Shown here in pieces: positions 25,251-46,639 of a stretch of DNA of 64,000 nt; within the stretch, counting starts at the first letter, position 1, and the number at the start of each line of letters is the position of its first letter. Both the position numbers and the translations under genes were made by a program. Source of the DNA: an uncultured Actinomycetes bacterium (GTDB lineage Bacteria; Actinomycetota; UBA4738; JACQTL01). The notes beneath the pieces were generated by a model. That model was not told where the DNA came from. It saw only the letters and a program-made list of their open reading frames with translations, and searched no databases. The stretch spans positions 427,309 through 491,308 of the forward strand of contig CAVPQW010000005.1 in NCBI GenBank assembly GCA_963707645.1, in the 5' to 3' direction.

Positions 25251-25856
25251 ATGGCGGAAACGAACCCTCAGCACGATGCCAAGGCCGCGCTCCGGGCACG
25301 GATGCGCTCCGTGCGGGACGCGCTGACCCCCGAGGAACGGGACGTCGCCGGCCGGGCGATCACGGCGACGGTGCTTGCCCGGCCGGAGGTGGCGGGGGCG
25401 GGCGTCGTGTCGCTGTTCTCCTCGTTCGGCTCGGAGGTGTCGACCGCACAGCATCGCCGACGGCGTCCTGTCCGCGGGCAAGCGGCTGTTGTTGCCGTTC
25501 CTGCGACGACGGGCTGATGGAGACGGCCGAGGTGACCGCCGGTGAGGCACTCGTGGCAACCGCCGTACGGGCCGCTCGAGCCCGCGCAGCCGGTCCCCGT
25601 CGACCCGGTGATGGTGGACGTCGTGATCGCGCCCGGGCTCGGGTTCGACCCGCGCGGGAACCGTCTCGGGTACGGGAAGGGCCACTACGACGGATACCTT
25701 CGGCGGATCCGGCCCGAGGTCCCTCGGATCGGGATCGCATACGCGGCCCAGATCGTCGACGAGGTCCCGGCAGGCGAACGCGACGAGCGGATGGACATGG
25801 TCGTGACGGAGGCGGGAGTCGTCGTCTGCGCCCCGCCGAGGGCCCTCCCGGGCTGA
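25251..25856 (+). pseudogene. 5-formyltetrahydrofolate cyclo-ligase, interrupted by three apparent +1 frameshifts as sequenced
   Basis: The frame order is 0, 1, 2, then back to 0. It gives 'MAETNPQHDAKAALRARMRSVRDALTPEE...SSFGSEVSTA', 'IADGVLSAGKRLLLPFL', 'DDGLMETAEVTAGEALVATA', 'YGPLEPAQPV...GLGFDPRGNRLGYGKGHYDGYL...'. Joined, this follows the YgfA-family layout. Confidence 0.8.
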
Positions 25857-26069
25857 TCGGCGCGAAGAAAACTTCGGGCGGCCTCCGTCGGCGTCCGTGC
25901 GGTGCCGGACGGAGCGCGGACCTGTGGTTCGTCGATGCTCGGATGGCTGCTTGCCTTGTCCGTTTCCGTCCGGTTTTCTGATTGGAACGGTTGATGTGCC
26001 CCCATCCCTGTGGGAGGGTGCGCGCCACTTCCACAAGCACGGAACTCGAGCAAGGGGGGGTAGCCGCCC

Positions 26070-27242
26070 ATGTGGGATCGCGGCCACCGGACGGCCCGCA
26101 CGCTGGGAAGCCTTCGGGCGTGGGGAATCGGAATGCTGATCGCGGCGCTGCTCGCCTCGGTCACGGGGTTCGTGCTCGACGCGGCCCCCGAAGGCAGGGA
26201 CAAGCCGTCGGAGCGCCCGGCGACGGCCACCGCGCACCCGAAGGCGCCCGGACACGGGCCGGTGCCCGCCCCTCCCAAGGCCGGGCACCACGCGTACGGA
26301 CACCGCCCCGCGCCGCACCGGGTGCCGCGCCACGCCCCGCCGCTCCCGCAGCACGCCCGGCCGGCCTGGTCCGCCGGCGCACCCGAGGCCACCTGGAGCC
26401 GGTACATGACGACGGTCGACCAGCGCAGGGTGCGCCGCCTGGGTTGCGACCTCGGACAGCGGGTCCGGGGAGGACACGAGCCCGACGACTCGCTCGTGGT
26501 CCTGGCGTTCGGCATGCCCATGCATCACAAGGGCAGGTTCGGCGCCTCGCTGTTCGGGCACTTCGCCAACAGCAGGAAGATCGGCGGGGCCGCCGTCGCG
26601 TTCGGTCGGGGGTTCGGCGAGTGCCTGGGGAAGTCGCCCGGGCACCTGACGCTGTCGATCGGGACCAGCAACTACGGACGCGACGTCACGTATCGACACG
26701 GCCGGATCTGGGGTTCCATGGTCAACCGCGCCAACGGCATCCTCCGGTCGTGGGGGCTGGCCGACACGGTCTCCGTGCACGGCGGCAACGACATCGAACC
26801 CGGCTGGCGCGGACCGAAGGCCACCCGGCGGTGGATCCGGGGCTACAAGTGGGTGACCTCCACGCCGTACTTCAACTTCGGCGGCGCGGGCGGCTGCCCG
26901 CCGGCCGGGTACTGCGAGGGCGACTGGACGATCGAGGACATCTGGTACGCGGCATGGGGGTCAGGCGTGGCGATCCCGCTGCCGGAGATCTACTCGCCGA
27001 CCGGCACCAACGCCGAGCAGTGGTACCGGCTCAGCCTGTGGTCGTACAAGACCCACGGGGAACGCATGGACATCGCCGGCGCTATGTCGCAGCGGCAGTC
27101 CTGTTGGGACGCGCACGACCGGTGCTTCGGGATTCGCAACCCTCCGAACAGATCGTGGTCCCAGCTGTGGCATGCCCTGAACAAGGACCCCCGGACCGCG
27201 CAGCCGCTCCGGTTCTCGACGAACATCAGCTGGCAGAACTGA
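26070..27242 (+). CDS. Membrane-anchored/secreted protein with Pro/His-rich linker and Cys/Trp-rich domain, function unknown
   Basis: Intact 390 aa. N-terminal TM 'WGIGMLIAALLASVTGFVL'. The C-terminal ~270 aa has protein-like composition. Confidence 0.7.
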   Translation: MWDRGHRTARTLGSLRAWGIGMLIAALLASVTGFVLDAAPEGRDKPSERPATATAHPKAPGHGPVPAPPKAGHHAYGHRPAPHRVPRHAPPLPQHARPAWSAGAPEATWSRYMTTVDQRRVRRLGCDLGQRVRGGHEPDDSLVVLAFGMPMHHKGRFGASLFGHFANSRKIGGAAVAFGRGFGECLGKSPGHLTLSIGTSNYGRDVTYRHGRIWGSMVNRANGILRSWGLADTVSVHGGNDIEPGWRGPKATRRWIRGYKWVTSTPYFNFGGAGGCPPAGYCEGDWTIEDIWYAAWGSGVAIPLPEIYSPTGTNAEQWYRLSLWSYKTHGERMDIAGAMSQRQSCWDAHDRCFGIRNPPNRSWSQLWHALNKDPRTAQPLRFSTNISWQN

Positions 27243-27290
27243 CGCGCCCGAACCCGGGAGTGCGTGATGCGCTCGCGTAGAATTCGAGCG

Positions 27291-27724
27291 ATGCCCACCT
27301 ACGAGTACGCCTGTCTGCAGTGCGGCGAGCACGTGGAGGTCTTCCAGTCCTTCAGTGACGAGCCGTTGTCCGTGTGCCCGAACTGCGGGGGCAGCTCCGG
27401 AAGGTGTTCCACCCGGCCGGGATCCTGTTCCGGGGGTCGGGGTTCTACAAGACGGACAGCCGATCCAAGTCGAAGTCGTCCGGCGACGGCGGCGGGTCGA
27501 GCTCGGACTCGAAGTCGAAGTCGGGCTCCTCGTCCTCGAAGTCGGATTCGTCGTCATCAAGCTCCGGGTCGGCGGACTCGGGCTCCGGGTCGTCGGGCTC
27601 GGGGTCTGGGTCGTCGGGCTCGGGCTCGGGGTCCGGGTCGGGCTCGGGGTCCGGGTCGGGCTCGGGGTCTGGGTCGTCATCGAAGCAGCCGGCCCCGGCG
27701 GGCGGTTCCAAGGGGTCGAGCTGA
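27291..27724 (+). pseudogene. FmdB-family zinc-ribbon protein with long Ser/Gly/Lys/Asp tail; one apparent -1 frameshift in a G5 run as sequenced
   Basis: 'MPTYEYACLQCGEHVEVFQSFSDEPLSVCPNCGG' (frame 0) continues as 'QLRKVFHPAGILFRGSGFYKTDSRSK...' in frame 2. Junction at ggggg 27387-27391. Confidence 0.75.
27623..27676 (+). repeat. 3 x 18-nt tandem repeat (ggctcggggtccgggtcg) encoding (GS)n, within a longer Ser/Gly-coding low-complexity tract (~27470-27690)
   Basis: Units at 27623-27640, 27641-27658 and 27659-27676 (the last with c>t). Read directly. Confidence 0.85.
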
Positions 27725-28517
27725 GCACCGCGGCCGTCGGCGTGTTCGGGGGCTCGGGGTTCTACTCGTTCGTCGACGCCGTCGACGAGCTCAACGTCGA
27801 CACGCCGTACGGGCCGACATCAGCTCCGATCACGATCGGCGACGTCGGCGGGCAGCGGGTGGCGTTCCTGCCGCGGCATGGGCGTAAGCACGAGTTCCCG
27901 CCGCACATGATCCCGTACCGCGCGAACGTCTGGGCCATGAAGGAGCTCGGAGTGGAGCGGCTGTTCGCGCCGAACGCCGTCGGGTCCCTTCAGCTCCACA
28001 TCCCACCGGGGTCGTTCGTGATCTGCGACCAGCTCGTCGACCGGACCCGCGGCCGGGCGGACACGTTCTACGACGGGCCGGAGACGACGCACATCTCGTT
28101 CGCCGACCCGTACTGCCCGACGATGCGTTCGTCGGTCATCTCAGCGGGCCGGGACCAGGGCCTCGATCTCCACGAGACCGGGACCATCGTCGTGATCCAG
28201 GGGCCCCGGTTCTCGACCAGGGCCGAGTCCGCGTGGTTCCAGCGGCAGGGGTGGGAGGTCATCGGCATGACCCAGTTCCCCGAGGCGCCGCTCGCCCGGG
28301 AGCTCGAGCTGTGCTTCGCGAACATCTCGCTCGTCACCGACTACGACGTGGGCGTCGGCGACACGCCGCCGGTCACGCAACGACGAGGTCATCCGGGTGT
28401 TCAACGAAAACAACTCCCGGCTTCGCGACCTGCTGTTCGCCGCCGATCCCGGCGCTACAGGCCAAACGCGACTGCGCGTGCGCGACAGCGCTGTCGGGCG
28501 CCCGCTTCGAGCCGTAG
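27721..28517 (+). pseudogene. mtnP: S-methyl-5'-thioadenosine phosphorylase (MTAP), two apparent +1 frameshifts near the 3' end as sequenced
   Basis: 'VGVFGGSGFY', 'FLPRHGRKHEFPPHMIPYRANVWAMKELGV', 'VIQGPRFSTRAES', 'GMTQFPEAPLARELELCFANISLVTDYD'. It then continues 'DEVIRVFNENNSRLRDLLFAA' (next frame) and 'IPALQAKRDCACATALSGARFEP*' (next frame). The start is uncertain: CTG 27721 or GTG 27742. Confidence 0.85.
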
Positions 28518-28569
28518 CCGTCGCGGTCGGGCGGCCGTGCCCTTCGCGGCCGCGGGTACGATCGGGTCC

Positions 28570-28749
28570 ATGGCCGAACTGCAGCTCATCACCGTGGAAC
28601 TTCGATTCAAGACCCGCGACGACGACCCCGGACAGATCGCCGACCGCATCCAGGAATCCGCCGCCCTGATCGTGGGGCGGGACGCGCTCGAGGAGTTCCG
28701 GTGGCGCTCCATGCCCCTCGAGTCGAAGGACCGCCGCCGCGAACGGTGA
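28570..28749 (+). CDS. Small hypothetical protein (59 aa)
   Basis: ATG 28570. 'MAELQLITVELRFKTRDDDPGQIADRIQESAALIVGRDALEEFRWRSMPLESKDRRRER' has balanced composition, unlike the flanking junk frames. Confidence 0.5.
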   Translation: MAELQLITVELRFKTRDDDPGQIADRIQESAALIVGRDALEEFRWRSMPLESKDRRRER

Positions 28750-28912
28750 GGCGCATCGGCTCGCGCCGGACCTGTGACGAACTTCACTGACAGCGCCCCC
28801 CGGCAGGTCGCTAGGGTCCGCGCGCACCTCCTCCGTACACGACTGGCGTTTCCCGGCCGGTGCGACTGCACCGCTCGCCCGGGCCGGAACGCCCTGCTGA
28901 GAGGGGTGTCGA

Positions 28913-29564
28913 ATGGGGAGGAAGTGGTCACCCGCGTCGAAGGCGTCCGCCGCGCTCGCGGTGGTGTTCGGCTTCGCGGCGTTCCTGCTGGTCCACGGGT
29001 ACACGGAGCGCGTCCGCGCGCTGGCGCCGGCGCTCGGCGAGCCGGCGCCGGTGCTGGTCGCTGCGACCGACCTGCCGCGGGGCACCCGACTCACGCCGGA
29101 CTTGCTACGCCGGGTCACGGTGCCGTCGCGATTCGCCCCGCCGAAGGCGATGCGCGACCCGGACGCAGCGGCTGGCCGGGTGCTGCTGGCCGGCTTGGCG
29201 GAGGGCGAGGCGCTGACGACGACGCGCCTCGCGCCGGCGCACGCGGGTCCCATCGCCGCGCTCGTGCCCGAGGGCTTCCGTGCGGTCTCGGTTCCGGTCG
29301 AGCTCCCCGCCGGGTCGGTGCACCCGGGCGACCACGTCGACCTGCTGGCGACCTTCACCACTGGGCGGCACCACGTCGAGACGATCGCGTCGGGACTCGA
29401 GGTGCTGCTCGTCCTCGACTCGTCCGATCCGAGCGGCGGGATCGCCGACACGGGAGGTTCCGGCGTCCGGACTCTGATCATCCTGACGCACGCCGTCCCA
29501 GGCCGAGAGCCTGGCCTACGCGAAGGCGTTCGCCGCGATCTCCGTGCTCATCGACGGGCCATGA
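28913..29564 (+). pseudogene. cpaB: Flp-pilus-assembly CpaB/RcpC-like protein (TM + SAF + CpaB domain), one apparent +1 frameshift as sequenced
   Basis: 'ASAALAVVFGFAAFLLV' TM, 'VLVAATDLPRGTRLTPDLL' SAF-like, 'RAVSVPVELPAGSVHPGDHVDLLATF'. C-terminus 'QAESLAYAKAFAAISVLIDGP*' appears after a shift at ~29496-29500. Confidence 0.7.
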
Positions 29565-29642
29565 CCGGAGGTCATCTTCAGCCGGCATGCGCCGACGCGA
29601 TACAGAGGCGCGGAATCCCGGAGGCGGACGTCGAAGGCCCCG

Positions 29643-30107: not shown

Positions 30108-30112
30108 GGACG

Positions 30113-30316: not shown

Positions 30317-30941
30317 TTATTGCGGGGTGCCGACGGCGAGGAACGGCAGTGCATGGACGGCCGCGCCGTCGTCGACGGATGCCTCGAGCGTGTAGGAACC
30401 GGGCTCCGGGATCTGCAGCGGAACGTTCATCGCCACCTGGAACAGTTGGCTCATCCCGTGGGGTGTTCCAGGAGGGCGGCCGACCTCGAACTCGCCTTCG
30501 GCACGGAACAGTTCCCGGTCGTGCGTCCGAGGTGAGGCCGCGGATCAGGAGGCGGTGGCGCCTGTTCGTCTCGGTCCACTGCACGCGAACCCCAACTGCG
30601 ATGGCCACCGGGAGCGTCGCCGGGTACTGGGCGAGCTGGAGACGGTCCCAGCCGCCGCCCATGACGTAGAGCTTCGCGCCGACGACCTGTGCGGCGTCGC
30701 ACAGGAGCAGGTACTCGATCGTCAGGCCTTCGATGACCTCGTCCCCGAGGCTCTGCCCATCGGGACCGGCCCCCATCGCGGGATCCGGGCCCGTTCCCGG
30801 ATCCGAGGCCGGGTCGGGACCCACCGGGGAGCCAGTCCGGGAATCCGTTTCGGAATCCGGGACCGCTTCGCCCTCCGACCCCGGTTCGGAATCCTCAGCG
30901 CCCGGCTCGGCGCCGGCGTCGTCGTCGGACGGGTCGCTCAC
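30317..30941 (-). pseudogene. Hypothetical protein with acidic low-complexity N-terminus and beta-rich C-domain, translationally coupled to pmbA; one apparent +1 frameshift
   Basis: GTG 30941 overlaps the pmbA stop (GTGA). '...LTIEYLLLCDAAQVVGAKLYVMGGGWDRLQLAQYPATLPVAIAVGVRVQWTETNRRHRLLIRGLTSDA' then, after a shift at ~30519-30525, 'DRELFRAEGEFEVGRPPGTPHGMSQLFQVAMNVPLQIPEPGSYTLEASVDDGAAVHALPFLAVGTPQ*' (TAA 30317-30319). Confidence 0.55.
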
Positions 30942-32279
30942 AGCCCTCCGATCGTCATCTCGCCAACCAGCACCGTCGGCGAACCGGTCGAGCCGAAGAA
31001 CCGGAGGTCGTTCCCCGTTGCCACGACGCCCTCGAGCATCTTGCGGAGGGTGCTCGCCACGGTCATCTCGCGGAGCGGCTCGGCCAGCTCGCCGCCTGAG
31101 ATCCGCAGGCCCGTCGCGCCGACCGAGAACTCGCCGGAGATCGGATTCGCGCCCGAGTGCACGCCGGAGACCTCCTGGATGTAGACGCCGCCCTCCGCCC
31201 GGCGGAGCAGCTCCCCCGGCGGGGACGTGCCCGGCGCGAGGAACAGGTTCGTCGTGGACACTCCGGGCGGGCTCCGGAACCCGGCCCGGCCGGCGTTCCC
31301 CGTCGACAGCGTGTTCCCCCGGTGCGCGGTGTGGGCGTTGTGAAGGAACCCCCCGAGGCGCCCGCGGTCGATGAGCGGCGTCCGCTGGCTCGGCACACCC
31401 TCGTCGTCGAACGGTGCGGCGCCGGGCCCGTCGAGCAGCCGGCCGTCGTCGACGAGGTTCACGGCGTCGGACCCGACCACCTCGCCGACCAGCGGCGCGA
31501 ACAGCGACCGGCCCTTCTGGACCGACTCCGCGGAGAGCGCGCCCGCCAGCACGCCGAGGAACGCCACCGCGGCGCCGGGATCCAGCACCACCGGATGCCA
31601 GCCCGAGGCCGGCTTCGGTCGCGCCGAGCAGCCGGGACGCGCGGGTGGCCGCCTCCTCGGCACAGGCCATCCAGTCGAGGTCACCGGGCTCGCGGGCCAA
31701 TCGGAACGCGAACCCCGTCTGCGTCTCGTCGCCCTCCTCGGCGAGCGTCGACGCCGAGCACCAGCAGTCCGTCCGCCGGTATTCGCCATGGAACCCGCGC
31801 GTCGAGGCGATGGCGATCCGGGAGATCGCGTCCGCGTACGAAACGTGTTCGGTCTTCCGGACCCGCGGGTCGATCCGCGTGGCCGCGACGTCGAGGTCGA
31901 GCGCCATCGACACCTTGCGCTCGGTCGGGGTGTCGACGAGCGCCTGCCGGTACAGCCCGTGGAGCGCCTCGGCCTGCTCGGGCGCCGGCAGGACGTTGTG
32001 CTCGTCCTCGGTGGCGAGCGCGGCGTTGTCGCGGGCCCGGCCCAGCGCCTCGACGACCTCGGCGGGCGTCGGATCTGCCGCCCACGCGTATCCCATGCGG
32101 CCGTCGGCGATCACCCGGATACCCACGCCGCGGCTCTCGGCGAACGTCACGGACTCGACGTCGCCGGCCCGGGCCCGGACCTCGGTGCGCCGAGACTCCT
32201 GGGCGTAGGCCTCGACGGCCTCGCCCTTCTGAGACGCGCGCAGCGCGGCCGCGGTGAGCTCGTGGAGGTCGGCGCTCAT
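30938..32279 (-). pseudogene. pmbA: Metalloprotease PmbA/TldE, one apparent +1 frameshift as sequenced
   Basis: N-part 'ESRGVGIRVIADGRMGYAWA...' (frame of 32279). C-part 'KPASGWHPVVLDPGAAVAFLG...GNAGRAGFRSPPGVSTTNLFLAPG...GANPISGEFSVGATGLRISGGE' (ORF 30938..31789). Junction ~31612-31620. Confidence 0.85.
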
Positions 32280-32301: not shown

Positions 32302-33729
32302 TCAGCCCGTTCCTCCCACGGTCATCCGCGAGATCCGGAGCGTCGGGCTGCCGTTCCCCACGGGGACGCCCTGCCCCTCCTTGCCGCAGATCCCGTAGAA
32401 CACGTCGAAGTCGTCCGCGAGCGCGTCGATCCCCTGGAGGATCGCCCGTGCCGTTCCCGACGAGGTTGGCGCCGCGGACGGGCTTGGTGATCTCGCCGTT
32501 CTCGATCAGGTAGCCCTCGGTCACGCCGAACACGAAGTCGCCCGTCGCGGGGTTCACCTGGCCGCCGCCGAGCTTCTTCGCGTAGAACCCCTTCGGCGGT
32601 GTCGGCGACGACCTGGTCCGCCGTCGCCTCGCCGGCGAGGATGTACGTGTTGGTCATCCGGGGGATCGGCAGGTGCGCGTACGACTGCCGCCGCCCGTTC
32701 CCCGACGAGGGAACGCCGTCGCGTTCGGCCCGGATCCGGTCGTACATGTAGCCCTCCAGCACGCCCTCGGTGAACAGGACGGTGCGCTGGCTCGGCCACC
32801 CCTCGTCGTCGAACGAGAACGAACCCCATGCGTTGGGGACGGTCGCGTCGTCGACGCCGTTCAGCAGCGGCGTCGCCAGGAGCTCGCCGATCCGGCCGCG
32901 GTAGATCGAGGATTCCTTCTGGATGAGGTCGGCCTCGAGGCCGTGGCCGCAGGCCTCGTGGAACAGCACCCCGCCGCCGCCCGGGCCGATCACGACCGGC
33001 ATCTCGCCCGCGGGGGCCGGGACGCCGTCGAGCATGGCGACCGCCGACCGGGCGGCCTTCTCGGCCGTCTCCCGCGGCGGGAACTGGTCCACGTACTCGG
33101 TGCCGGCCACCAGCGCCGGCCCGTGGAACCCGGTCTGGATGACGCCGTCGCGCGACGCGACCACCTGCACCACCAGCCGGATGCGGGGCCGGTCCTCGCG
33201 CACCAGGCGGCCGTCGGTGGCCGCGATCATCACCCGCTGGAGGGAGTCGCCGTACCCGGCCACCACGCCGGTGACCGCGGGGTCGACGGCGCGCGCGGCC
33301 TCATCGGCCTCGCGCAGCCAGCGGACCTTCTCGTCGGGCGGCAGCAGCGACGCCGGGTGCTCGGCGACGTGGCGCACCTCCGGCTCGCGCCGCGTGAGGT
33401 CGACGACCTGCGGGCGGCTCGTCCTGCCGGACCGACGCCGCTGCGGCGGCAGCGACCTCGAGCAGCGAGTCGCGGTCGAGGCGGTTGGAGTAGGCGTAGC
33501 CGGTCGAGCCGCCCTGGACGACCCGCACGCCGGCGCCGCGGTCGAGCCCGGTGTCGAGCTCCTCGATCCGCCCGTCGTCGAGCCGGATGCCCACCGACGC
33601 TCGTTCCTCGACGAACAGCTCGGCGAACGACCCGCCGCGAGCGACCGCCGCCCGCAGCACCTCGCGCGCCAGATCCGGGTCGACGAGATCGTCGTCGGTG
33701 CGCTGAGGGGTCTCGTCGTCCGGGGTCAC
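32302..33729 (-). pseudogene. tldD: Metalloprotease TldD, three apparent +1 frameshifts as sequenced
   Basis: Segments 'GAGVRVVQGGSTGYAYSN' (33729 frame), 'GGGVLFHEACGHGLEADL' HExxxH (33377 frame), 'FYAKKLGGGQVNPATGDFVFGVTEGYLIENGEITKPVRGANLVGNG' (32557 frame), 'ILQGIDALADDFDVFYGICGKEGQGVPVGNGSPTLRISRMTVGGTG*'. Junctions ~33408-33413, 32587-32592 (C4 run) and 32444-32448. Confidence 0.9.
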
Positions 33730-33741: not shown

Positions 33742-35032
33742 CTATCGGCGGTCGCCGGCCGGGGGAGCCGGTGTCCGGTCCCGCCCGATCCGCCACGGGC
33801 CGAGGAACGGCACGAACGACGCCAGGATCGCGACCTGGATCAGCGGGTTCGGCTCCCATTCGTGCATCCCGACCAGCTGCGCCGCGAAGAGCGTCGCGGC
33901 GAACGCCAGGTACGCGTTGGGGCCGGCGCCGCGCCAGACCTGCAGCTCGCGCAGCCCCCACGTTGCGAGCGGGACCACGGCGATCAGTCCCAGCACCAGC
34001 AGCCGTTCCGTGTTGTAGGCGAACAGCAGCTGCACGTACACCAGCACGAGGAACGGCAGCATCCGCAGCGCGAACGACCGGGCCCGGGGGCTGCGGACGA
34101 GGCCGGTCACGGCCAGGACCGGCGCCACCAGCCCGAACGCCGACACCGTGCGCACGAGCGTCTCCGGCCAGTGGTGGAGCCGCTTGGCCACGGTGTGGTG
34201 GAGCACCGAGCCGTACGTGTAGTCGCGGATCGTGTTGTCGCGGATGACCCTCGGAAGTCCGGCCACGTAGGCGGGGTCCGCGTTCCGCTGCGGGATCCCC
34301 AGATGGATCGCGATCAGCACCGCCACCGCCGGGAGCGCCGCCCCGATCGATCGGACGGCGAGGGCGGGGTCCCATGCCCGCCGCGCCCGCAGCGTGTACG
34401 CGAGCGGGGCCACGAAGATCACGCTCTCCTTGGCCAGCACGCCGAACACCAGGCACACGGCGAACGCGACGTCCCGCCCGGACAGCGCGAGGAGCACCGC
34501 GACGGTCGCCAGCAGGAACGCCAGCGGATCGGTCAGCCAGAAGTCGAACAGCGTCCACTTGGTCGCGTAGCCCAGCGCGAAGTACACGAGCAGCCCGGCG
34601 ATCGCCATGGCCTGCTCGAACCCCAGCCGCCGCAGCAGCGCCCACACCGCCACGCCGGTTCCCCACACGCCGAGCAGCGAGACCACCTGGAACCCGGCCT
34701 GGGTCGAGAACGGCATCGCCCATACGAGCGCCGGCCCGAGGACGCCGCCAGTTGTACGGCGCGATGTGGAAGCCGAACGGCCCGTCCTGCGCCATCGCGA
34801 TGTACATGTGGTGGTCCCAGGCGAGGCCGAAGTAGGCCGTTCCCGGCGTGAGGTGGTCCGTCCGGAACCACAGCAGCGCCGTGCACACGGCCGCGAGCCC
34901 GGCCGCCGCCAGGACGTGCCGCCGGTCGAGGGGGCCGGGGTCGGCGACGAGCGGGCTGCGGCCGCGCGCATCCCCGGAAGCGGGGCGCGACCCTGCGTCA
35001 CGCTCGGCGGTCTCGGTCACGTCGTCCAGCAT
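33742..35032 (-). pseudogene. Polytopic membrane protein (possible GT-C-type glycosyltransferase/polymerase), one apparent +1 frameshift
   Basis: N-part 'MLDDVTETAERD...LAWDHHMYIAMAQDGPFGFHIAPYNWR' (35032 frame) joins 'VLGPALVWAMPFSTQAGFQVVSLLG...' (35001 frame) at ~34741-34750. About 10 TM helices. Confidence 0.65.
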
Positions 35033-35095
35033 GCGGAACCCGATCGCGGCGGGTCAACCGACCGGCCGCCGCTTCCCGGCGCGTAGCATTCGGCC

Positions 35096-36568
35096 GTGTC
35101 TCGGACCGGCGCGCGTGGATCGCGGATGGCCGTCGGGCTCGTCCTCGTCGCGCTGGCCCTGGCGGCGTTCTACCTCGCGCCGGTCGTCATCCGGGGCTAC
35201 CACTTCGCGATCGGCGCCGACGCGCCCGTCTACACGTGGTGGACGCGACTCGCGGGGCACGACGGGCTGTCCGCGATCGCGGCCCGTCCGGGCGTCCCGA
35301 CGCTCGCCCTCATGATCGGAGGAACGCTCAACCTGTCGACCACCGAGGCGGTCGAGGCGATCGGCGTCGCGCTGCCCGTCGCCACCGGCCTCGCCGCGTG
35401 CGGCCTGGCCGTGTTGGCCGCCGCGGGCGCGTCGGGAACCCGGCTCGGAGCGTCGTGGCCGCTCGCCGGGCTCTTCGCCGGGTGGTACGCGGCGAACCTC
35501 GCCAACGGCTACCTGGCGAGCCTGGCGGTGGCGGCGCTGTTCCTCGCTGCGCTCGCGGCGGTGGCGGCCCGCCGGCCGATCCCAGCGGCGATCCTCCTCG
35601 CCGCTGCCGCCCTGTGCCACGCGGCCTTCGCGGTGCTCGGAGGCGTCGTCCTGCTCGCAGGCGTCGCGTGGCACGCCTGGGCCACCCGCCGCGCCGGCGA
35701 CCGCGACCCGTTCGCGCGAACCGCGCTCGGCGCCCTCGCCGGGGGCGCCGCCGTTGCGGGGGTGGGGTTCCTCACGCTGATCGCGTGGGGCCCGGACCCG
35801 ATCAGGAACGCCGACACCTCGAAGGACGCGTTCCTCCGCCGGGCCGGCCTCACCGAACGCCTCCACGCTCTGTACCGGGACCGGCTCGGGTCGAACTGGA
35901 CGCGATCGCTTCCGTTCCTGTACGTGCCGCTCGCTGCCGTGGGCGCCGTGACCGAGCGCGACGCGAAGGGCGGCGCCGCGGCCTTCACGCGCCGCGTGCT
36001 CGTGGCCTGGGCGGGAATCGCCGCGATCGGCCTGGTCGCGGCCGCGGTCACCGGACTGCTCCCCTCCGAGCGGTTCCTGTCGTTCGCGTTCGCTCTGCCG
36101 GTGCTCGCGGCCGTTGCGGTTGCCTGGCTCTGGACGGCGGGCGGCGGTCGCACCTGGAGGCGGGTCCTCGCGGGGCTGGCGGTCGTCGCGATCGCCGTCG
36201 GGTCGGTGCTCGCGTGGCGGCACGCGGCGCAATTCTTCCGCGACGATGACATGGTCGCGGCCGAGCCGGTCTCCGCGATCGCAGGCGGACTGCCGCCGGG
36301 AACGCCGATAGTCGTGGTCGTCGACGAGGCCGGGCACGCCGGCCTCGATGTGCCGAGATGGGGGAACGAGCTCCGCAGCGCAGTGCCACCCGACCGCATT
36401 CGGGACGTCCACCTGTTCGTCGGCTCGCCGGGCGACTACCTGGCTCGGCGCCCGGCGCACACCGGCGACGAGCTCCGCGACCGGCTGTCGGAACGGTACC
36501 TGGCCGATCTCGAGGAGCGATCGCCGGCTCCGATCGGCGGCCCGTCGCCCTCGTCGTGCGCCCCATGA
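35096..36568 (+). CDS. Polytopic membrane protein with C-terminal soluble domain, function unknown
   Basis: Intact 490 aa, at least 9 hydrophobic helices. '...HFAIGADAPVYTWWTRLAGHDGLS...'. The stop overlaps the next start (ATGA 36565-36568). Confidence 0.65.
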   Translation: MSRTGARGSRMAVGLVLVALALAAFYLAPVVIRGYHFAIGADAPVYTWWTRLAGHDGLSAIAARPGVPTLALMIGGTLNLSTTEAVEAIGVALPVATGLAACGLAVLAAAGASGTRLGASWPLAGLFAGWYAANLANGYLASLAVAALFLAALAAVAARRPIPAAILLAAAALCHAAFAVLGGVVLLAGVAWHAWATRRAGDRDPFARTALGALAGGAAVAGVGFLTLIAWGPDPIRNADTSKDAFLRRAGLTERLHALYRDRLGSNWTRSLPFLYVPLAAVGAVTERDAKGGAAAFTRRVLVAWAGIAAIGLVAAAVTGLLPSERFLSFAFALPVLAAVAVAWLWTAGGGRTWRRVLAGLAVVAIAVGSVLAWRHAAQFFRDDDMVAAEPVSAIAGGLPPGTPIVVVVDEAGHAGLDVPRWGNELRSAVPPDRIRDVHLFVGSPGDYLARRPAHTGDELRDRLSERYLADLEERSPAPIGGPSPSSCAP

Positions 36569-36990: not shown

Positions 36991-38479
36991 CCGGCCCCGC
37001 GCCATCCGCACGGCCTGCACCATCGCCCACACCAGCGCCACGAGCATCACCGGCCCGACCACGTCGTGCCCGACCGCCAGCACGAACCGGTACTGCGCCG
37101 AGTGCAGCGCCGGCTCCGCGATGGAATGGGTCACGGCCAGCAGGCACGACAGCGCGACGACCACGACTCGGCCGCCCTTCGGCAGGAACCACGCCACCGG
37201 CAGGGCCCAGGCCACGTACCACGGGAGCAGGACCGGAGCGGCCAGGATGAACACGACGAGCGCCCATGCCCAGCCGGCGCCCTCCGCCGGCGCCGTCCAT
37301 CCCGGCCCGGCCCGGAACCGCCGCACGACGGCCACGCAGAGCAGCGCCAGCCCGGCTACCGCGGCGGCCGTCATGGCCGACCGGATCACGGCCTCGACGG
37401 CGGTCCGGCCGCCCTCGCCCCACAGGCTCTCGCCGATCCCGCCCAGGGTGGCCAGCAGCAGTCGCGTCGCCGTCACCCAGCCCCGGTGCGTGGCCAGCTC
37501 GGAGAGCCCGAGCGTCGGGTTCTCCGTCGTCCAGTACGGCAGCGCGAAGACCGCGGCGAGCCCGACGACCACGGCGAGCTCCAGCACGAACAGCCGAACC
37601 CGGGCTCCCAGCCGGGCGCGCGGCCAGACTCGCGACCACGGCGAGCACGAGCGCCGGGCCCGCGCTCGCCTTGATCAGGGTTCCCAGCGTGAGCAGCGCG
37701 ATGGCGAGCAGCTCGTGCCGCGGCCACCCGGCCGGCGCCGGCACGTCCGGCGCCCGCCACCGCTCGAACACCCCGCCCCGCACCAGCACCGCCAGCGCCC
37801 CCGCGACGCAGGCGGCCACGAGCAGATCGTTGTGCCCCCCGCCGACGGCGTAGGCGACGATCGCCGGGTTCCAGCCGAAGAGCACGAGCGCGAACGCGGC
37901 CCGCCCCGGCGCGACCCGCTTGGCCGTCCACGCGAGCACCAGCAGCGTTCCCACCGCCGCCAGCCCGGCGATGATCTTGAACGCCCACACCATCGCGATC
38001 GGGCTCGAGAACGCCCGGGCCAGCGCACCCGAGAGCATCGTGAACGCCGGCCCGTACACGGCCGGGGTGTCGCGCCAGACCGACCCGATCACGGGAAACA
38101 GCTCATCCGACCGGAAGTGCTCGGGCGTCGCGAGGTACGGGTTCTGATGGTAGACGGCGTCGATCCGCCCGTACATCGAATAGGAGTAGACGTCCCGCGA
38201 CAGCAGCAGCGGCGTCAGCACGACCACGGAGACCTGGAACGCGACCGCGAGCCACAGCACCTTCCGCACCGAGAGCCGCCCGAGCCACGCCTCGCGCAAT
38301 CCGAACAGGAACGCCGCGCCCCACGCCGCCATCAGGACGATGGACAGCCCGGCGCCGGCGGTGCGCGACCACCCACCCAGGCCGAGCCCGTCCGCGAGGC
38401 CGGCGAGTGGCGCCGGGGGGCCCCCGCCGTGAACCAGGACCGGCGTGATCGGCGACGGCCGCATGCCGGCGACGATCAC
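36910..38479 (-). pseudogene. GT-C-type polyprenol-phosphate-mannose-dependent mannosyltransferase-like membrane protein (MptB/DUF2029-like), one apparent +1 frameshift; N-terminus uncertain
   Basis: 'LLLSRDVYSYSMYGRIDAVYHQNPYLATP' first-loop motif, 'FGWNPAIVAYAVGGGHNDLL'. Junction ~37597-37604 joins '...VVASLAARPAGSP' to 'VRLFVLELAVVVGLAAVFALPYW...'. A TM-like stretch upstream of GTG 38479 hints at a further 5' problem. Confidence 0.65.
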
Positions 38480-38710
38480 GGTGGCCGCGACGGCGACGAC
38501 GATGGCGGAGACGGCGAGATCTGCGGAGAGCGGGCGGGTGCGGGTCGCCGGGCGCCGTTCGGAGCACGAAGTCGGGACCGTTCCCGCGCCGTGGTCACGT
38601 CCGGCGACTGTAGCAGCGGGTTCCGCCCGGAGAGTTCCTCCGTGACGGGAGCGGATCGGGTGTCGAGCTCGGGCGAGCCGGGCGATGTGGGCGCGCCGAT
38701 GCCGGAACGA

Positions 38711-39782
38711 TCAGTCCGGCGGACAGATCACCTGGAGGTACGCGAAAGGGTCCACGGCGCCGTTGGTGTCGGCGAGCTGCCGATCGTAGGCGGCGACGTG
38801 GTTGGGGTGCCACTCGAAGTGGTCGTGCGGCGAGGTGCCGATGGCGTCCCCGGTGTTCCCGACGAACCCGACCACGGTCCCGGCCTTCACGTCCTGCTCG
38901 GTGATCCCGTACGCCACGAGGTGTGCCATGTAAACGTAGCCTTGGGCGCCGTGGACCTTCACGGCGTTTCCGCCGAGCGTGTTCGGCACGCGTTCCACGT
39001 AGCCGTCGAACGGCGCGACGATCGGCGTCCCCTCCACGGCGAAGATGTCCACGCCCGCGTGCGGGTGGTAGCCGCCCGCGTAGCGCGGGGCGCCGTAGCT
39101 GTCCGAGTACGACCACTTGCCCTGGACCGGGCAGATCGTGAACGGGAATCCGATGGGCAGAACGGTCGAGTTGTACTTCGCGCCCTCGACCGTCTCCCGC
39201 GAGATCAGCGAGGCGAGATCGAGCGAGTTCTCGGGCGGCGTGCCGGATCCGATGCTGCCCTCGATGTCGGGAGTGCCGGGGTTCGCGCCGTCGTCGCCGC
39301 GGATGCGGTTGCCGCTCTTCCCGTCCTTCTTCGTTCCCGAGGAACCCGTGCCGGAGCCCGTTCCTTTGCCGTCTGAGCTTTGAGATCCGTCGCCGACGTG
39401 TCGACGAGGAATCCTTCGAGCCGTCCTTCGTCGATCCGGAACTCGAGCCGTCATGCGTCGAGCCCGAGCCGGAACCCCGCTTGTTCGTCTTGAAGATCTC
39501 CGACAGCGCGACCGATCCGGAGCCGCCCTGGACGTCGGCGTTCTCCGGGCCCTCGAGGCCGTCGCCGACCGGGTGGTGGGCCCGGGTGGTGGTGATGTGC
39601 CCCGACCCGGCGACCGGGCTCGCGTTCACCAGGGGCACGGTGACGGCAGCGGGTTCATGCGCTTGCACGACCGGGTCTCGGTGGACGCCCGGGTACTGGC
39701 CGCAGGCGGAGCCGACGACGGCCGCGACGACCGCGACGCCGACAATGCCGGCCGGGCGGAGGCGCGAACGCCTGCGCCGCAC
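38711..39782 (-). pseudogene. M23 (LytM-type) metallopeptidase lipoprotein, one apparent +1 frameshift in the low-complexity linker
   Basis: GTG 39782 'MRRRRSRLRPAGIVGVAVVAAVVGSACG' lipoprotein signal, then a Ser/Gly/Lys/Asp linker. Catalytic domain 'GGYHPHAGVDIFAVEGTPIVAPFDGYV...GNTGDAIGTSPHDHFEWHP' (HxxxD...HxH). Junction ~39395-39405. Confidence 0.8.
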
Positions 39783-41224: not shown

Positions 41225-41240
41225 GATCGAAATAGGGCGT

Positions 41241-42377
41241 TCAGGTTCGGGGGGCCGGCGACTCCGCGAAGAGATGGAGACGCTCGGCCATCGTTGCGGC
41301 CTCGACGCGGCGTTCGACCGCCATCTTGGACAGGATGTTGGACACGTGGGCGCCGGCGGTCTTCGCGCTGATGAACAGCTCGGCGGCGATCTGCTTGTTG
41401 GTGTAGCCCTGGGCGACCAGGCGCAACACCTCGCGCTCGCGTGGGGTGAGCCCCAGGTCCTCGGCGTCCGCCGTGTCTGTCGGTCGCGTTCCCTGGCGTG
41501 ACCCGATCCCGGTCTCCTCCAGGAAGGCCTGGACGGCCTCGACGATCGCATCCTGGTCGCCCGCCCACATCAGGTGGTCGATCCCGGCGAGCTCGACGAA
41601 CCGGGCGCCGGGGATCCCCTCCGCGAGCTTCCTGCCCTGGCGGATCGGGCACCACGAGGTCGCCCGTCCGGTGCAGGACCAGCGTGGGGACTCGGATCAG
41701 CCGAAGGGTCGCCTCCCAGTCGATCTGGTAGCCGAGCTTCATCAGCGATCTGGCGGACCCCGGGCTCACGCCGGAGCGCGTGAGACGGAGGTACGCGGCC
41801 TTCGTGAGTTCGTCGTCGCTGAGGCTCGGCGCCCAGAAGGCGATCCCCACGCCCTCGGTCCCCCATTCCCGCTCCACGCGGTCCAGGGCGAGCTCCTCGT
41901 TCCCCGCGAGGCGCGCGAGGAGCCCGGTGTCGGGCGCAAGCTTCCCGAAGGTCCCGTAGAGCACCAGCGCGGCCGCCCGGTCCGGGTACGTGGCGGCGAA
42001 CAGGCCGCACATGGCACCGCCGCCAAGCGTCCCGAACAGGACCGCTCGCTCGGACCCCACCGCGTCCAGCACGGCGAGGACGTCCTCCATGCGCTGCTCG
42101 AGCCGGGGCAGCGTTTCGGGGTTCACCCGGTCCGAGAGCCCGGTTCCCCGCTTGTCGAACAGGACCAGCCGGGAGAAGGAGGCCAGCTTCTCGAGGAAAC
42201 GGGCGAGCGGCGGGACGTCCCAGGCCAGGTCCAGGTGGGTCACCCAGCCCGGCGAGAGGATGAGGTCGATGGGCCCGTCGCCCAGCGTCTGGTACGCGAT
42301 GTTGAAGCTGCCGACCTTCGCGTACCGGGTCTTCAGGTTCGGGGGGAACCACCGGCGAAGGTCACGCTCGCTCGCAT
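41241..42377 (-). pseudogene. Alpha/beta-hydrolase-fold domain fused to LuxR-type HTH regulator; two apparent frameshifts (-1 in a homopolymer run, +1) as sequenced
   Basis: ATG 42377 'MRASVTFAGGS' shifts into 'PPNLKTRYAKVGSFNIAYQTLGDGPIDLILSPGWVTHLDLAWD...FDKRGTGLSD...' at plus-strand G6 run 42341-42346. A second junction at ~41645-41651 leads into 'IRQGRKLAEGIPGARFVELAGIDHLMWAGD...LTPREREVLRLVAQGYTNKQIAAELFISAKTAGAHVSNILSKM'. Confidence 0.8.
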
Positions 42378-42633: not shown

Positions 42634-44007
42634 ATGACCAAGTCGACGCTCGAGGGGCTCCGCGAGCAGGCTCGCGGGGAGGTGATCGCGCCCAGCGACG
42701 AGGGCTACGACGCGGCGCGAAAGGTCTTCAACGCCATGATCGACCGGAAGCCGCAGGTGATCGTCCGCGCGGCGCACGCCGGGGACGTCATCGCCGCCGT
42801 CGACTTCGCACGCGAGGTGGGCCTCGACCTGGCGGTACGTGGCGGCGGCCACAGCGTCCCGGGTTTCGGCACGGTCGACGACGGCGTCGTGATCGACCTG
42901 TCGCCGATGCGCGCCGTTCGGGTCGATCCCACGGAGCGGCTGGCGCGCGTCGAGGGCGGGGCGACGTGGGGCGACATGAACGACGCGACGCACGAGTTCG
43001 GACTCGCGACCACGGGCGGCGTCGTCTCCACGACGGGGGTCGGGGGACTCACGCTGGGTGGCGGCATCGGCTACCTGGCCCGCGGCTACGGCCTTTCCTG
43101 CGACAACCTGGTCTCGGCGGACGTCGTCACGGCCGACGGCCGTTCGCTCGTGGCCAGCGAGCAGGAGAACGAGGACCTGTTCTGGGCGATCCGAGGCGGG
43201 TCCGGCAACTTCGGGGTCGTCACCTCCTTCGAGTTCCGCCTCCATCCGGTGAAGGACGTCTACGGAGGGCCGATGTTCTTCGACCTCGCCGACGCCCGCG
43301 CGGTCCTCGAGTTCTACCGCGAGTTCATCGCCGAAGCCCCCCGTGAGTTCGGCGGGTTCCCTGCGTGGCAGATCGCGCCGCCGCTCCCGTTCGTTCCGGA
43401 GGACCGGCACGGCGACACGATGCTCGCGTTCGTGGCGTGCTGGGCCGGCGACGTCGACCGGGGTGAGGAGATCCTGAAGCCGTTGCACGACGTCGCCCCC
43501 GTGGTCGCGGAGCACGTCGGGGCGATGCCGTACCCGGCGCTCAACAGCGCGTTCGACGGGCTCTACCCCCCGGGCGCGCTGCAGCACTACTGGAAGGCGA
43601 ACTTCGTGAAGGAGCTCACCGACGAAGCCATCGCCGCCCACCTCGAGCACGGTCCGCGCGTGCCGGTGGTGAACTCCACGGTGCACATCTATCCGATCAA
43701 CGGCGCCTGTCACGACGTGGCTTCCGACGCGACGGCGTTCGCCTACCGCGACGCGAACTTCGCGACGGTGATCGCCGGCATGTGGCCGGACCCGGCCGAC
43801 AACGAGGCGAACACCACGTGGGTTCGCGACTACTACGAGGCGACGGCGCCGCTGTCCGAGCCCGGCGGCTACATCAACTTCATGTCCGGCGACGATCAGG
43901 ATCGGATCAAGGCGAACTACCGGGGCAACTACGACCGGCTGGTGCAGGTCAAGCGGGTGTACGACCCGGACAACCTGTTCCACGTGAACCAGAACATCGG
44001 GGCGTAG
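42634..44007 (+). CDS. FAD-binding oxidoreductase, BBE/VAO family
   Basis: RBS gaaaggag before ATG 42634. 'AVRGGGHS', 'GGVVSTTGVGGLTLGGGIGYLARGYGL', C-terminal 'NYDRLVQVKRVYDPDNLFHVNQNI' BBE tail. Confidence 0.9.
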   Translation: MTKSTLEGLREQARGEVIAPSDEGYDAARKVFNAMIDRKPQVIVRAAHAGDVIAAVDFAREVGLDLAVRGGGHSVPGFGTVDDGVVIDLSPMRAVRVDPTERLARVEGGATWGDMNDATHEFGLATTGGVVSTTGVGGLTLGGGIGYLARGYGLSCDNLVSADVVTADGRSLVASEQENEDLFWAIRGGSGNFGVVTSFEFRLHPVKDVYGGPMFFDLADARAVLEFYREFIAEAPREFGGFPAWQIAPPLPFVPEDRHGDTMLAFVACWAGDVDRGEEILKPLHDVAPVVAEHVGAMPYPALNSAFDGLYPPGALQHYWKANFVKELTDEAIAAHLEHGPRVPVVNSTVHIYPINGACHDVASDATAFAYRDANFATVIAGMWPDPADNEANTTWVRDYYEATAPLSEPGGYINFMSGDDQDRIKANYRGNYDRLVQVKRVYDPDNLFHVNQNIGA

Positions 44008-44079
44008 GAAACCAGGGCGCCACCGGCGCGGGGTACAGGGTCCGACGTCAGTGGGAGCAGACGCGTCCGGTCGTCGTCG

Positions 44080-45078
44080 TCAGACCGTCGCGGGTTCCTC
44101 CACTCGCGCTTGCGAGGACGCGGACTCGTCCCCGGACGACTCCGAGTCGGCGACTTCCGGCACGGCGTCCGGGTCGCACACGCGGCACGGCGACAGGTCC
44201 GAGCGCCTGGCCGCTTCGATCGGCATGCGGTCGAGGCCTTCCTTGCCCTGCACCAGCCGGCAGTCCGGGCGGTGATAGGTCGACGGTCCGGCCACCACCG
44301 TGTTCGGCGGCGGAGCCGCCGGGCTGCCGAGCTGCGACAGCGCGTCGGTCTTCTCGGGATCGCCGGCGGTCCGGCCGACGGCGACCGCCATGACCTCGAG
44401 GACGTTCATCAGCTTGCGGCGCTCCGTCCGGATCTGCGCGATCAGCAGCAGCGCGACCGAGAGCAGGATCAGCGCCATGCCGCCGAACCCGCCGGAGAGG
44501 AGATACGGCAGCTGCTCGTCGGTTGAGGCCACCTTGGCCATGCCGTTCCAGCCAAGCACGATCATGGCGAACCCGGCGAACGCGAAGACGAGCGCCAGGA
44601 TGCGCGCGCCCCTCACCGGGAGGCCGAAGTGCTCCTCCTCCTGCTCGCCGCGCTCGGCGGCGGCATCCTCGACCTGCTGCCTGGCGCGCGCGGCGAGGGT
44701 TCCGCCCATGAGGTCGAGCACGCGCGAGACGCGCTGGCGTTCGGCCCGGATCTGCGCGATGAGCAGCAGCCCGACGCCGAACGTCAACAGGGCGATGCCG
44801 GCCGCGCCCCCGGAGAGCAGATAGGGCAGCTGCGAGTCGGCGGAGGCCTGGCGGGCGGCGCCGTTCCAGCCGACGGCGATCGCCGCGCCCCCTGCGATGC
44901 AGAACAGCAGGGCCAGAATGCGGGCTGATCGAACCTGCCGGTCGGCGGTCACGAAGACATCCCTCCCCTCGGATTCAACGGATCGAGGATTGCGGTCACG
45001 GTGGGGAAACCCGGCTTCCTTGTACCCCTCGGAGGGCTCGCTCACACGCGTTTCCGCAGGCAGGGACCGCAGGCGCAA
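44080..45078 (-). CDS. Membrane protein with internally duplicated two-TM module and C-terminal Cys/His Ada-like zinc-ribbon motif
   Basis: Two copies of 'ARILAL.F..AG.A.I..GWNG.A..AS.D.QLPYLLSGG..G.AL.....LLLIAQIR.ER'. C-terminus 'YHRPDCRLVQGKEGLDRMPIEAARRSDLSPCRVCDP'. The start is uncertain. Confidence 0.65.
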   Translation of the reverse strand: MRLRSLPAETRVSEPSEGYKEAGFPHRDRNPRSVESEGRDVFVTADRQVRSARILALLFCIAGGAAIAVGWNGAARQASADSQLPYLLSGGAAGIALLTFGVGLLLIAQIRAERQRVSRVLDLMGGTLAARARQQVEDAAAERGEQEEEHFGLPVRGARILALVFAFAGFAMIVLGWNGMAKVASTDEQLPYLLSGGFGGMALILLSVALLLIAQIRTERRKLMNVLEVMAVAVGRTAGDPEKTDALSQLGSPAAPPPNTVVAGPSTYHRPDCRLVQGKEGLDRMPIEAARRSDLSPCRVCDPDAVPEVADSESSGDESASSQARVEEPATV

Positions 45079-45116
45079 CGCGAACCGAAACGGGCGGCCC
45101 GTCGAACCATCAGTCG

Positions 45117-46639
45117 GTGATGGTTCGCGGCACGGCGCGACGGCGTGCGGGGGCCGTCGCCGCGGTTGCCCTCGTGGCCGCGACCTGTGGGGTGGTCGGC
45201 GTGATCCCGCGCGCGCTCCCGAGCTCCGGCTTGACCGGAATCCACAAGATCCGGCACGTGATCGTGATCATGCAGGAGAACCGGTCGTTCGACTCCTACT
45301 TCGGGACGTTCCCCGGGGCGGACGGCATCCCCATGGCGAACGGCGTTCCGACCGTGTGCGTCCCCGACCCGGCCGTGGGGCACTGCGTCCGCCCGTTCCA
45401 CGATCCAGACGTCGTGAACGAGGGCGGTCCGCACAGCGATACCAGCGCCCGTGCCGACGTGGACGCCGGGGCGATGGACGGCTTCGTGAGGAACGCGTTC
45501 GCCGGACGGCGGGCGTTCTGCATCACGGCGCCGGTCGACGACCCGCGGTGCACCGGGATCATCACCCACGACCGGGTTCCCGACGTGATGGGCTATCACG
45601 ACGCCCGCGAGATCCCGAACTACTGGACGTACGCGCGGGACTTCGTCCTGCAGGACCACATGTTCGAACCGGTCGAGTCGTGGAGCCTGCCGTCGCACAT
45701 GTGGATGGTGTCCGGGTGGTCGGCTCGTTGTTCGAACCCGATCGATCCCATGTCGTGCCGGACCGCCCTGGACTTCGGCTCGCACCGCAACCCGCTCCTC
45801 CGCGGCGGCTACCCGTGGACCGATCTCACGTGGCTCCTGCACCGGGACCACGTGACGTGGCGGTACTACGTGAGCCAGGGACAGCAGCCGGACTGCGACG
45901 ACGACGGGATGTTCTGCCGGCGAGGGCACCAGTCCGCGGGAACGCCCGGCATCTGGAACCCGCTGCCCAAGTTCGACGACGTGAACGAGGACGGACAGCG
46001 GGGGAACATCCGGCCGGTGGGCTCCTTCCTCCGGGCGGCTCGGGCGGGGCACCTGCGCGAACGTCTCGTGGATCGTGCCGAACCAGCGCGACAGCGAGCA
46101 CCCGCCCGCGTCGATCCGGACCGGCGAGGCGTACGTCACGCGGCTGATCGACGCCGTGATGGCGAGCCCCGATTGGTCGTCCACCGCGATCTTCCTGGCG
46201 TGGGACGACTGGGGCGGGTTCTACGACCACGTCGCGCCGCCGCGCGTGGACGGCGCCGGCTACGGCCTGCGGGTTCCGGGATTGCTGATCTCGCCGTACG
46301 CGCGGCAGGGGGTGCGTCGACCACCAGACGCTGTCGTTCGACGGGTACCTGAAGTTCATCGAGGACGACTTCCTGGGCGGGGCCCGGCTCGACCCGCGGA
46401 CCGACGGCCGGCCCGACTCGCGGCCGGGCGTCCGCGAGAACGCGCCGGTGCTCGGCGATCTGTCGAGCGAGTTCGACTTCTCGCAGCCGCCGCGGCCGCC
46501 GGAGATGCTGCGGCCGTACCCGCCACTGCCGCCGTCAGGCGCCGGAGGTCGAGCCGGCGCCCGGGCCCGAGGTGGCCACCGGGGTCGAGCCGCCGTCGTC
46601 CTGCGGGGCCGACGTGCCCGGGATCGAATCCGGGGATGA
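45117..46639 (+). pseudogene. Phosphoesterase/phospholipase C family (PF04185-type) enzyme, two apparent +1 frameshifts; 3' end uncertain
   Basis: 'IRHVIVIMQENRSFDSYFGTFPGADG', 'GYHDAREIPNYWTYARDFVLQDHMF...SLPSHMWMVSGW'. It then continues '[40 protein letters not shown]...[17 protein letters not shown]' (next frame) and '[22 protein letters not shown]...' (next frame). Junctions ~46050-46056 and ~46310-46317. Confidence 0.8.

Follow-up and report, generated by a model that had tools for sequence, protein, structure and literature searches.

The window analysed here is a stretch of 64,000 nt covering positions 427,309-491,308 of contig C5 in a 3.42-Mb metagenome-assembled genome of an uncultured soil-type Actinomycetota bacterium (MAG; G000, hereafter the source MAG), which consists of 16 contigs, the largest of them being 0.96 Mb long, and has a G+C content of 70-71%. 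Between 25 and 47 kb the window carries genes coding for 5-formyltetrahydrofolate cyclo-ligase, a small zinc-ribbon protein, MTAP, a CpaB/RcpC protein, a DUF6941 protein, PmbA, TldD, three membrane proteins including an MptB-like one, an M23 peptidase, an alpha/beta-hydrolase fused to a LuxR (GerE) part and a PLC-family phosphoesterase, and these genes are interrupted, or in one case possibly interrupted, by frameshifts which very probably are errors of the assembled consensus. A preliminary description, made from the letters of the window alone, had listed 19 single-base frameshifts in this region, considered them to be confined to a 21-kb block with almost clean flanks, and explained them by insertion-biased sequencing or assembly error.

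A genome of the same genus, G001, shows synteny to the window at a nucleotide identity of about 77%, and the named relatives retrieved by protein search are uncultured Actinomycetota MAGs. Up to five relatives (G001, G002, G005, G006 and G007) were used to check the individual sites. The checks included two homology-free methods, namely a frame plot of G+C content at third codon positions (GC3) and a six-frame codon hidden Markov model (HMM), as well as tblastn searches against the window with the open reading frames (ORFs) of G001 and then of the other four relatives, a custom frameshift-aware protein-to-DNA aligner applied to all the window genes and all the relatives, and local DNA multiple alignments made for each site. 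Gene identities were assigned with Pfam.

Same-strand frame changes are numerous between 25 and 47 kb according to the GC3 plot and the codon HMM alike, and the collinear tblastn alignments switch frame at the listed positions. Seventeen of the 19 listed frameshifts were reproduced at or within a few bases of their positions when up to five relatives were aligned to the window, both as protein to DNA and as DNA to DNA (Table 1); most of these are backed by two to five relatives, and each corresponds to one base found only in the window or, at 27388, to one gap found only in the window. The other two fall short: the site at 39395-39405 is weak (one relative, poor flanks), and the one at 42341-42346 was not verified. 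Two more lesions, absent from the first list, were found at about 36.51 and 38.55 kb. The block holds 17 '+1' versus three to four '-1' events and has no premature in-frame stops, both the sign bias and the missing stops being as first described, and at every examined site the orthologues in the relatives are without the extra base, which is present in the window only.

Table 1 Frameshift sites in the window. '+1' and '-1' denote one extra and one missing base, respectively; INS1 and DEL1 are an extra and a missing base called by the protein-to-DNA aligner (INS2, two extra bases); window-only bases were found in DNA alignments with relatives; fractions are identical residues in the flanks.
Gene and event	Position in the window	Strand	Evidence
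Single event outside the block	9931..9952	-	HMM change from frame -0 to -1 at 9951/9952, junction without stop
5-formyltetrahydrofolate cyclo-ligase, site 1 of 3, +1	25449..25453	+	INS1 at 25449; window-only C at 25452; HMM change 25443/25444
5-formyltetrahydrofolate cyclo-ligase, site 2 of 3, +1	25504..25516	+	INS1 at 25504 (G006) and 25516 (G007); HMM change 25503/25504
5-formyltetrahydrofolate cyclo-ligase, site 3 of 3, +1	25555..25566	+	INS1 at 25565 (G006) and 25556 (G007); window-only G at 25555
Small zinc-ribbon gene upstream of MTAP, -1 in G run	27387..27391	+	DEL1 at 27389, three relatives
MTAP (PNP_UDP_1), +1	28377..28381	+	INS1, five relatives; window-only A at 28379
MTAP, second +1	28440..28446	+	INS1 at 28445, five relatives; window-only C at 28440
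CpaB/RcpC gene, +1 near 3' end	29485..29492	+	INS1 at 29489-29492, five relatives; window-only C at 29489
DUF6941 gene adjoining pmbA, +1	30519..30525	-	INS1 at 30521-30522 (G007, G002); window-only T at 30522 versus four relatives
pmbA, +1 between central and C-terminal domains	31612..31620	-	INS1 at 31616 (G005, G002); window-only G at 31617, five relatives
tldD, +1	32443..32448	-	INS1 at 32443, four relatives; window-only base at 32443 versus five relatives
tldD, +1	32587..32599	-	INS1 at 32594-32597; window-only base at 32598-32599
tldD, +1	33408..33420	-	INS1 at 33408-33420; window-only C at 33411-33414
Polytopic membrane protein gene, +1	34741..34750	-	INS1 at 34744, four relatives, flanks 9-14/15; window-only C at 34745, five relatives
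Membrane protein gene (~630 aa), -1, newly found	36510..36516	+	DEL1 at 36515 (G001, G002); HMM change 36516/36517
MptB-like membrane protein gene, +1	37597..37615	-	INS1 at 37603-37615, five relatives; window-only C at 37612
MptB-like gene, second lesion, net -1 (one missing or two extra bases), newly found	38532..38560	-	INS2 or DEL1 at 38532-38559, four relatives
Upstream of M23 peptidase domain, possible +1, weak	39395..39407	-	INS1 at 39407, one relative, flanks 5/15 and 11/15
Alpha/beta-hydrolase-LuxR (GerE) gene, +1 between both parts	41645..41658	-	INS1 at 41649-41658, four homologues
Same alpha/beta-hydrolase-LuxR gene, 5' end, candidate -1 in G6 run	42341..42346	-	Weak, mutually inconsistent signals near 42331-42368
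Phosphoesterase (PLC-family, PF04185), +1	46047..46056	+	INS1 at 46047-46056 (G001, G002); window-only G at 46055; Pfam match on the orthologue
Phosphoesterase, +1	46310..46317	+	INS1 at 46315 (G001, G002), flanks 13/15 and 12-13/15; window-only C at 46315

The gene first labelled FCL codes for 5-formyltetrahydrofolate cyclo-ligase, the orthologue being matched by PF01812. Its three '+1' events span about 115 nt (25449-25566), and the original frame is regained after about 40 scrambled codons; an ORF-level view would show just one stop and a locally scrambled 40-codon stretch, and such triplets of extra bases can be concealed within near-intact-looking ORFs. Around the missing base of the zinc-ribbon gene, the flanks are identical at 8-9 of 10 and 13-14 of 15 positions, and all five relatives have an additional base after 27388. 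Between this gene and MTAP, at 27561-27678, lies an imperfect G+C-rich tandem repeat with periods of 6, 18 and 21 and about five copies of TCGGGCTCGGGGTCCGGG, which is probably a low-complexity tail-coding or spacer sequence. The CpaB/RcpC orthologue gives Pfam matches to SAF and RcpC, and in the DUF6941 gene frame -2 (30525-30749) carries only positions 1-60 of the 125 positions of the PF22091 profile.

In pmbA, the first and the second PmbA_TldD domains share one frame, with the third domain lying in another, according to Pfam. The tldD coding sequence contains exactly three window-only bases (33414, 32599 and 32443) when compared to a contig with 86.6% identity and four relatives; that contig is also among the five relatives compared at 32443, where the extra base does not lie in a homopolymer. 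When read through the frameshifts, TldD aligns along its entire length (100%) with intact TldD proteins of 460-466 aa, which number in the hundreds and reach up to 91% identity, and the read-through MTAP likewise matches intact MTAPs of 257-264 aa across 97-100% of the length (hundreds of proteins, identity of up to 89%), so the split ORFs of the window are not independent genes in the relatives.

The region 35096-36568, which had been called intact, is truncated: it forms a 490-aa ORF, whereas its homologues are 612-652 aa long, and the last ~140 codons run on in another frame to about 36950. Three relatives carry one additional C after 36510 in the DNA alignment, and the gene cannot be considered intact since the '-1' event at about 36515 shortens a protein whose homologues have some 630 aa. 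The regions 26070-27242 and 44080-45078, also described as intact, do align without supported events. The placement of the ~38.55-kb lesion in the MptB-like gene is ambiguous in the DNA alignment. Next to the M23 peptidase domain itself, located at 38726-39334, the HMM changes frame within 39333-39448. In the alpha/beta-hydrolase-LuxR gene (41253-42348, minus strand), Pfam places the hydrolase domains in frame -0 and GerE in frame -2, and the homologues are single ORFs of mostly about 450-470 aa. This gene belongs to a large paralogous family with about eight matches in the source genome and up to 11 in the relatives.

One contig close to the window was found in public metagenomes, namely the 987-nt Ga0247826_10425627 from soil (JGI metagenome 3300030336, locus L062), which shares about 96% identity with window positions 35002-35976; its coding part is about 98% identical to the window without any indel, and the segment it covers contains no coding lesion. 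This match shows that a sister strain or species of the source MAG occurs in that soil metagenome sample. As for contigs near-identical to the window across a lesion, a single metagenome scan with the TldD core gave a best match of 80% identity, and the protein searches with read-through TldD and MTAP, with the best identities of 91% and 89%, yielded no near-identical contig over the lesion.

The flanks of the block are indeed clean within the window, as first described, and several apparent events outside the block fail on inspection. The single outside event that had been placed at 9931-9943 is seen by the codon HMM only (Table 1), and neither the DNA alignment with relatives nor Pfam supported an event at 9931-9952. 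The apparent frameshift at 52888-52890 is well supported but harmless: it lies in the short spacer (9 nt) that follows the stop codon of folE, the GTP cyclohydrolase I gene, and precedes the ATG of the 6-pyruvoyl-tetrahydropterin synthase gene. Here (52880-52897) the window is one base shorter than three relatives, and with stop-to-stop ORFs as queries this difference looks like a frameshift. Artefacts of the same queries were recognized at 60643 and 62011, which lie in 5' extensions overlapping a neighbouring gene, and at 23855, where an ORF of the minus strand extends in antisense over a gene of the plus strand. The events at 56310 and 56401 were called by the HMM only, and the alignment with G002, which is unbroken there, speaks against them.

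The confinement to a 21-kb block did not hold beyond the window, as lesions of the same kind are present on all 16 contigs. With a candidate defined as a same-strand frame change without a stop at the junction, the HMM found 1,200 candidates in the source MAG, or 0.41 per kb of coding sequence, ranging from 0.12 to 1.25 per kb across the contigs; in the relatives the same HMM gave 0.04-0.11 per kb for G001 (860 kb) and 0-0.03 per kb for G002, G006 and G007. Homology was used for a second count, in which the ORFs from 860 kb of G001 were aligned to the whole assembly, resulting in 101 unpaired well-flanked frameshifts in 257 kb of orthologous coding sequence, in 61 of 220 genes located on contigs C2, C5, C11, C13 and C16. 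Within the aligned orthologues, 71 of the 73 HMM candidates were matched by an aligner event, and the conservative intersection of both methods retains 65 events in 43 of the 220 genes, 58 of them '+1' versus seven '-1'. Among the same-genus orthologues, the broken share is therefore 20-28% of genes (43-61 of 220), and the overall rate in coding sequence is 0.25-0.41 events per kb versus 0-0.11 in four relatives. The HMM calls are biased in the same direction genome-wide (899 '+1' versus 301 '-1', i.e. 75% '+1'), and given both counts the '+1' bias seen in the block is a property of the assembly.

The baseline was measured on 860 kb of G001 rather than taken as zero because a first HMM classifier had given five candidates in a 65-kb region of this genome. 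The relatives are indeed not error-free, as is seen from the lesions of G001 (0.04-0.11 HMM candidates per kb). The MTAP gene of G001 contains a compensated '+1'/'-1' pair with the two events about 25 nt apart (C1:1950238-1950263, locus L012), which is seen in comparison with four other relatives, and one or two further '-1' events are found near C1:1960038-1960343. Marker genes give the source MAG a completeness of 69% and a contamination of 1.8% despite its very long contigs, the same-genus genomes being 4-5 Mb in size and 88-94% complete.

Candidates are distributed unevenly along the source MAG, with an index of dispersion of 6.6 for the HMM counts in 20-kb bins. Dense patches with about one candidate per kb alternate with clean stretches, and the autocorrelation of the density, computed with bins of 2 kb, drops from 0.39 at a distance of 2 kb to nearly zero at 20 kb, which corresponds to patches of up to about 15-20 kb. 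The block holds 11 HMM candidates, and as many or more are found in 24.5% of all genome windows of equal size; 18% of all these windows hold zero to one candidate, and the maximum is 38. Neither the 25-47-kb block, as a dense patch, nor the clean stretches on either side of it are unusual for this genome, so the picture of one poorly polished segment within an otherwise good assembly has to be replaced by that of a whole MAG affected in patches.

The broken genes bear no other signs of decay. No genuine internal nonsense codon was found in 85,566 aligned codons, to be compared with about 100 frameshifts; all 11 in-frame stops are located either upstream of the translated part, in 5' extensions that come with stop-to-stop ORFs, or within an antisense ORF that is spurious. 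An initial tally of 59 stops from the tblastn alignments was due to antisense ORFs, 5' extensions and out-of-frame read-through, and was replaced by this aligner-based count. Relaxed constraint was not seen either, the identity to G001 orthologues being 80.7% for broken genes and 77.4% for intact ones. Essential genes are also affected: leuS, which has a single copy (C2:66762-69193), is divided among three frames by three or more frame changes, and valS, also with a single copy (C2:180302-182861), between two frames by one frame change. Both genes are located on the contig with the lowest frameshift rate in the orthologue comparison (0.14 per kb). A transketolase-family match was split as well, though it was below the family cut-off and was not used as an essential-gene test. 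With regard to the sequence context, the 72 '+1' sites examined do not share any k-mer of 3-5 nt, the best 4-mer being present at 16 of them, and homopolymer runs of at least four bases occur within 6 nt of 1% of the '+1' sites versus 9% of control positions. The local G+C content differs trivially (0.717 at events and 0.709 at controls). About half of the pinpointed extra bases are copies of a base next to them, and C or G accounts for 13 of 15, matching the base composition.

It is very probable, as far as the sequence can tell, that the frameshifts are consensus-sequence errors of a draft MAG and not mutations of the organism. Insertion-biased sequencing or assembly error, already proposed in the preliminary description, agrees with every test run, as the lesions are genome-wide, break leuS and valS, and are accompanied by neither nonsense codons nor relaxed conservation nor a shared motif. 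The frameshifts of the block itself, being one dense patch among some 1,200 insertion-biased frameshifts that do not spare essential genes, are almost certainly errors. The assembly would most likely have been produced from error-prone long reads, and polishing may have been insufficient or the depth locally low, so that every 2.5 kb would contain, on average, roughly one erroneous position, usually a base too many and more rarely a base too few. The correlation length of 15-20 kb would be close to the length of a long read, and the 25-47-kb block would represent a stretch where the reads behind the consensus were insufficient in number or quality. It is well documented that consensus indels cause frameshifts and fragment gene calls in long-read MAGs, most severely below about 40x depth, where polishing is needed, and homopolymer indels have been emphasized for Nanopore consensus sequences (PMC9262707).

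Several observations weigh against this explanation. The insertion-rich, non-homopolymer profile is unlike the homopolymer-centred consensus indels of Nanopore data (PMC9262707). The density of candidates correlates significantly neither with G+C content (Spearman rho 0.11) nor with how far a region lies from the contig ends (rho -0.13). G001 itself has a few such lesions, the baseline thereby being above zero. Both rpoB and rpoC are unbroken; with 0.24 events per kb locally, the probability of this is about 0.17, and it is thus unremarkable. The avoidance of homopolymers speaks for another error model without contradicting error as such, and the errors may come from a consensus left raw-like where depth was very low, from a CLR-type chemistry or from mis-polishing.

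A different technical cause is also conceivable, namely a consensus built over a mixture of co-existing strains, in which microdiverse regions were scrambled, or hybrid contigs in which accurate short-read segments take turns with stretches bridged by raw long reads or missed by short-read polishing, and we regard it as a tentative possibility on the doubtful side. It is a variant of the error explanation rather than an alternative to error. Such an origin would fit the sharp switches between clean and dense patches at a scale of 20 kb or less and the five-fold or greater variation of contig rates within one bin (0.12-1.25 per kb), and related strains do co-occur in such habitats, as illustrated by the sister strain from the soil metagenome (~96% identical, ~98% in the coding part), but the broken genes are if anything more conserved, and not accessory or variable.

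It is, on the contrary, very improbable that the lesions are genuine, i.e. that insertions of single bases have recently inactivated at least one fifth of the genes in the organism or its dominant clone, be it through decay or a mutator burst. The bases are present in the deposited sequence, the frameshifted genes are otherwise undecayed, as very recent inactivation would leave them, and the clustering could in principle stem from a localized mutagenic process. However, not a single nonsense codon accompanies the ~100 frameshifts, the sole leucyl- and valyl-tRNA synthetase genes are broken, the phenomenon is missing from four relatives, and the patches disregard gene function while keeping a uniform scale of 20 kb or less. 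Moreover, 75-89% of the events are insertions and they avoid homopolymers, whereas indels arising spontaneously in bacteria favour deletions and tend to fall in runs; the insertion-rich, non-homopolymer pattern does not resemble replication slippage. What a genuine origin would demand is a very recent burst of insertion-biased non-slippage mutations in 10-20-kb tracts of a free-living soil actinobacterium or its dominant clone, which we consider hardly credible; if true, it would mean an error-prone polymerase-like action in patchy repair or replication, with a fifth of the genes, including those for aminoacyl-tRNA synthetases, broken before selection acts. Even more remote, to the point of being negligible, is the idea that the shifts are decoded through widely used programmed +1 frameshifting, transcriptional slippage or quadruplet codons. 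The strong '+1' bias and the missing stops would fit a systematic recoding rule, but there is no shared motif (even the best 4-mer is limited to 16 of the 72), slippery runs are not seen at the sites, the extra base is absent from the orthologues in five relatives at every site, a quarter of the events are '-1', and the sites cluster by patch and not by gene or codon context. Programmed frameshifting and quadruplet decoding are excluded by the missing common context and the missing conservation of the sites.

With consensus error as the preferred explanation, the gene calls, completeness and pseudogene counts of the source MAG are unreliable without frame correction or re-polishing, and the same is true for any split, fused or lost gene claimed in it unless corrected, so that the finding matters just as a quality warning. 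The homology-free count of frame changes (0.41 per kb versus at most 0.11 per kb in the relatives) can serve as a quick screen for such assemblies of high-GC genomes.

Compared to known systems, the source MAG resembles cases of programmed +1 frameshifting such as prfB in that one extra base has to be skipped to obtain the full protein. Programmed frameshift sites, that of prfB included, recur in orthologues and are recognizable by a slippery sequence or a stop in a defined setting, while the sites described here are neither conserved nor placed in a defined context. Pseudogene-rich genomes shaped by reductive evolution, e.g. that of Mycobacterium leprae, contain many interrupted genes and keep synteny to relatives. 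The source MAG shares these two features with M. leprae and with recent host-restricted lineages, but differs from them in having neither nonsense codons nor relaxed conservation, in the involvement of essential aminoacyl-tRNA synthetase genes, in the bias to insertions instead of deletions and in a patch scale unrelated to gene function. The fragmentation of gene calls by consensus indels, in MAGs as in other long-read assemblies, has reportedly been the subject of the proovframe preprint (10.1101/2021.08.23.457338) and the Kastor paper (PMC12007338). Although the events of the source MAG, unlike those in descriptions of Nanopore consensus indels, are mostly insertions and avoid homopolymers, it is such assemblies that the source MAG resembles in its single-base indels, which split well-conserved genes genome-wide, essential ones included, and are absent from relatives, in the completeness depressed despite long contigs, and in the regional variation of density.

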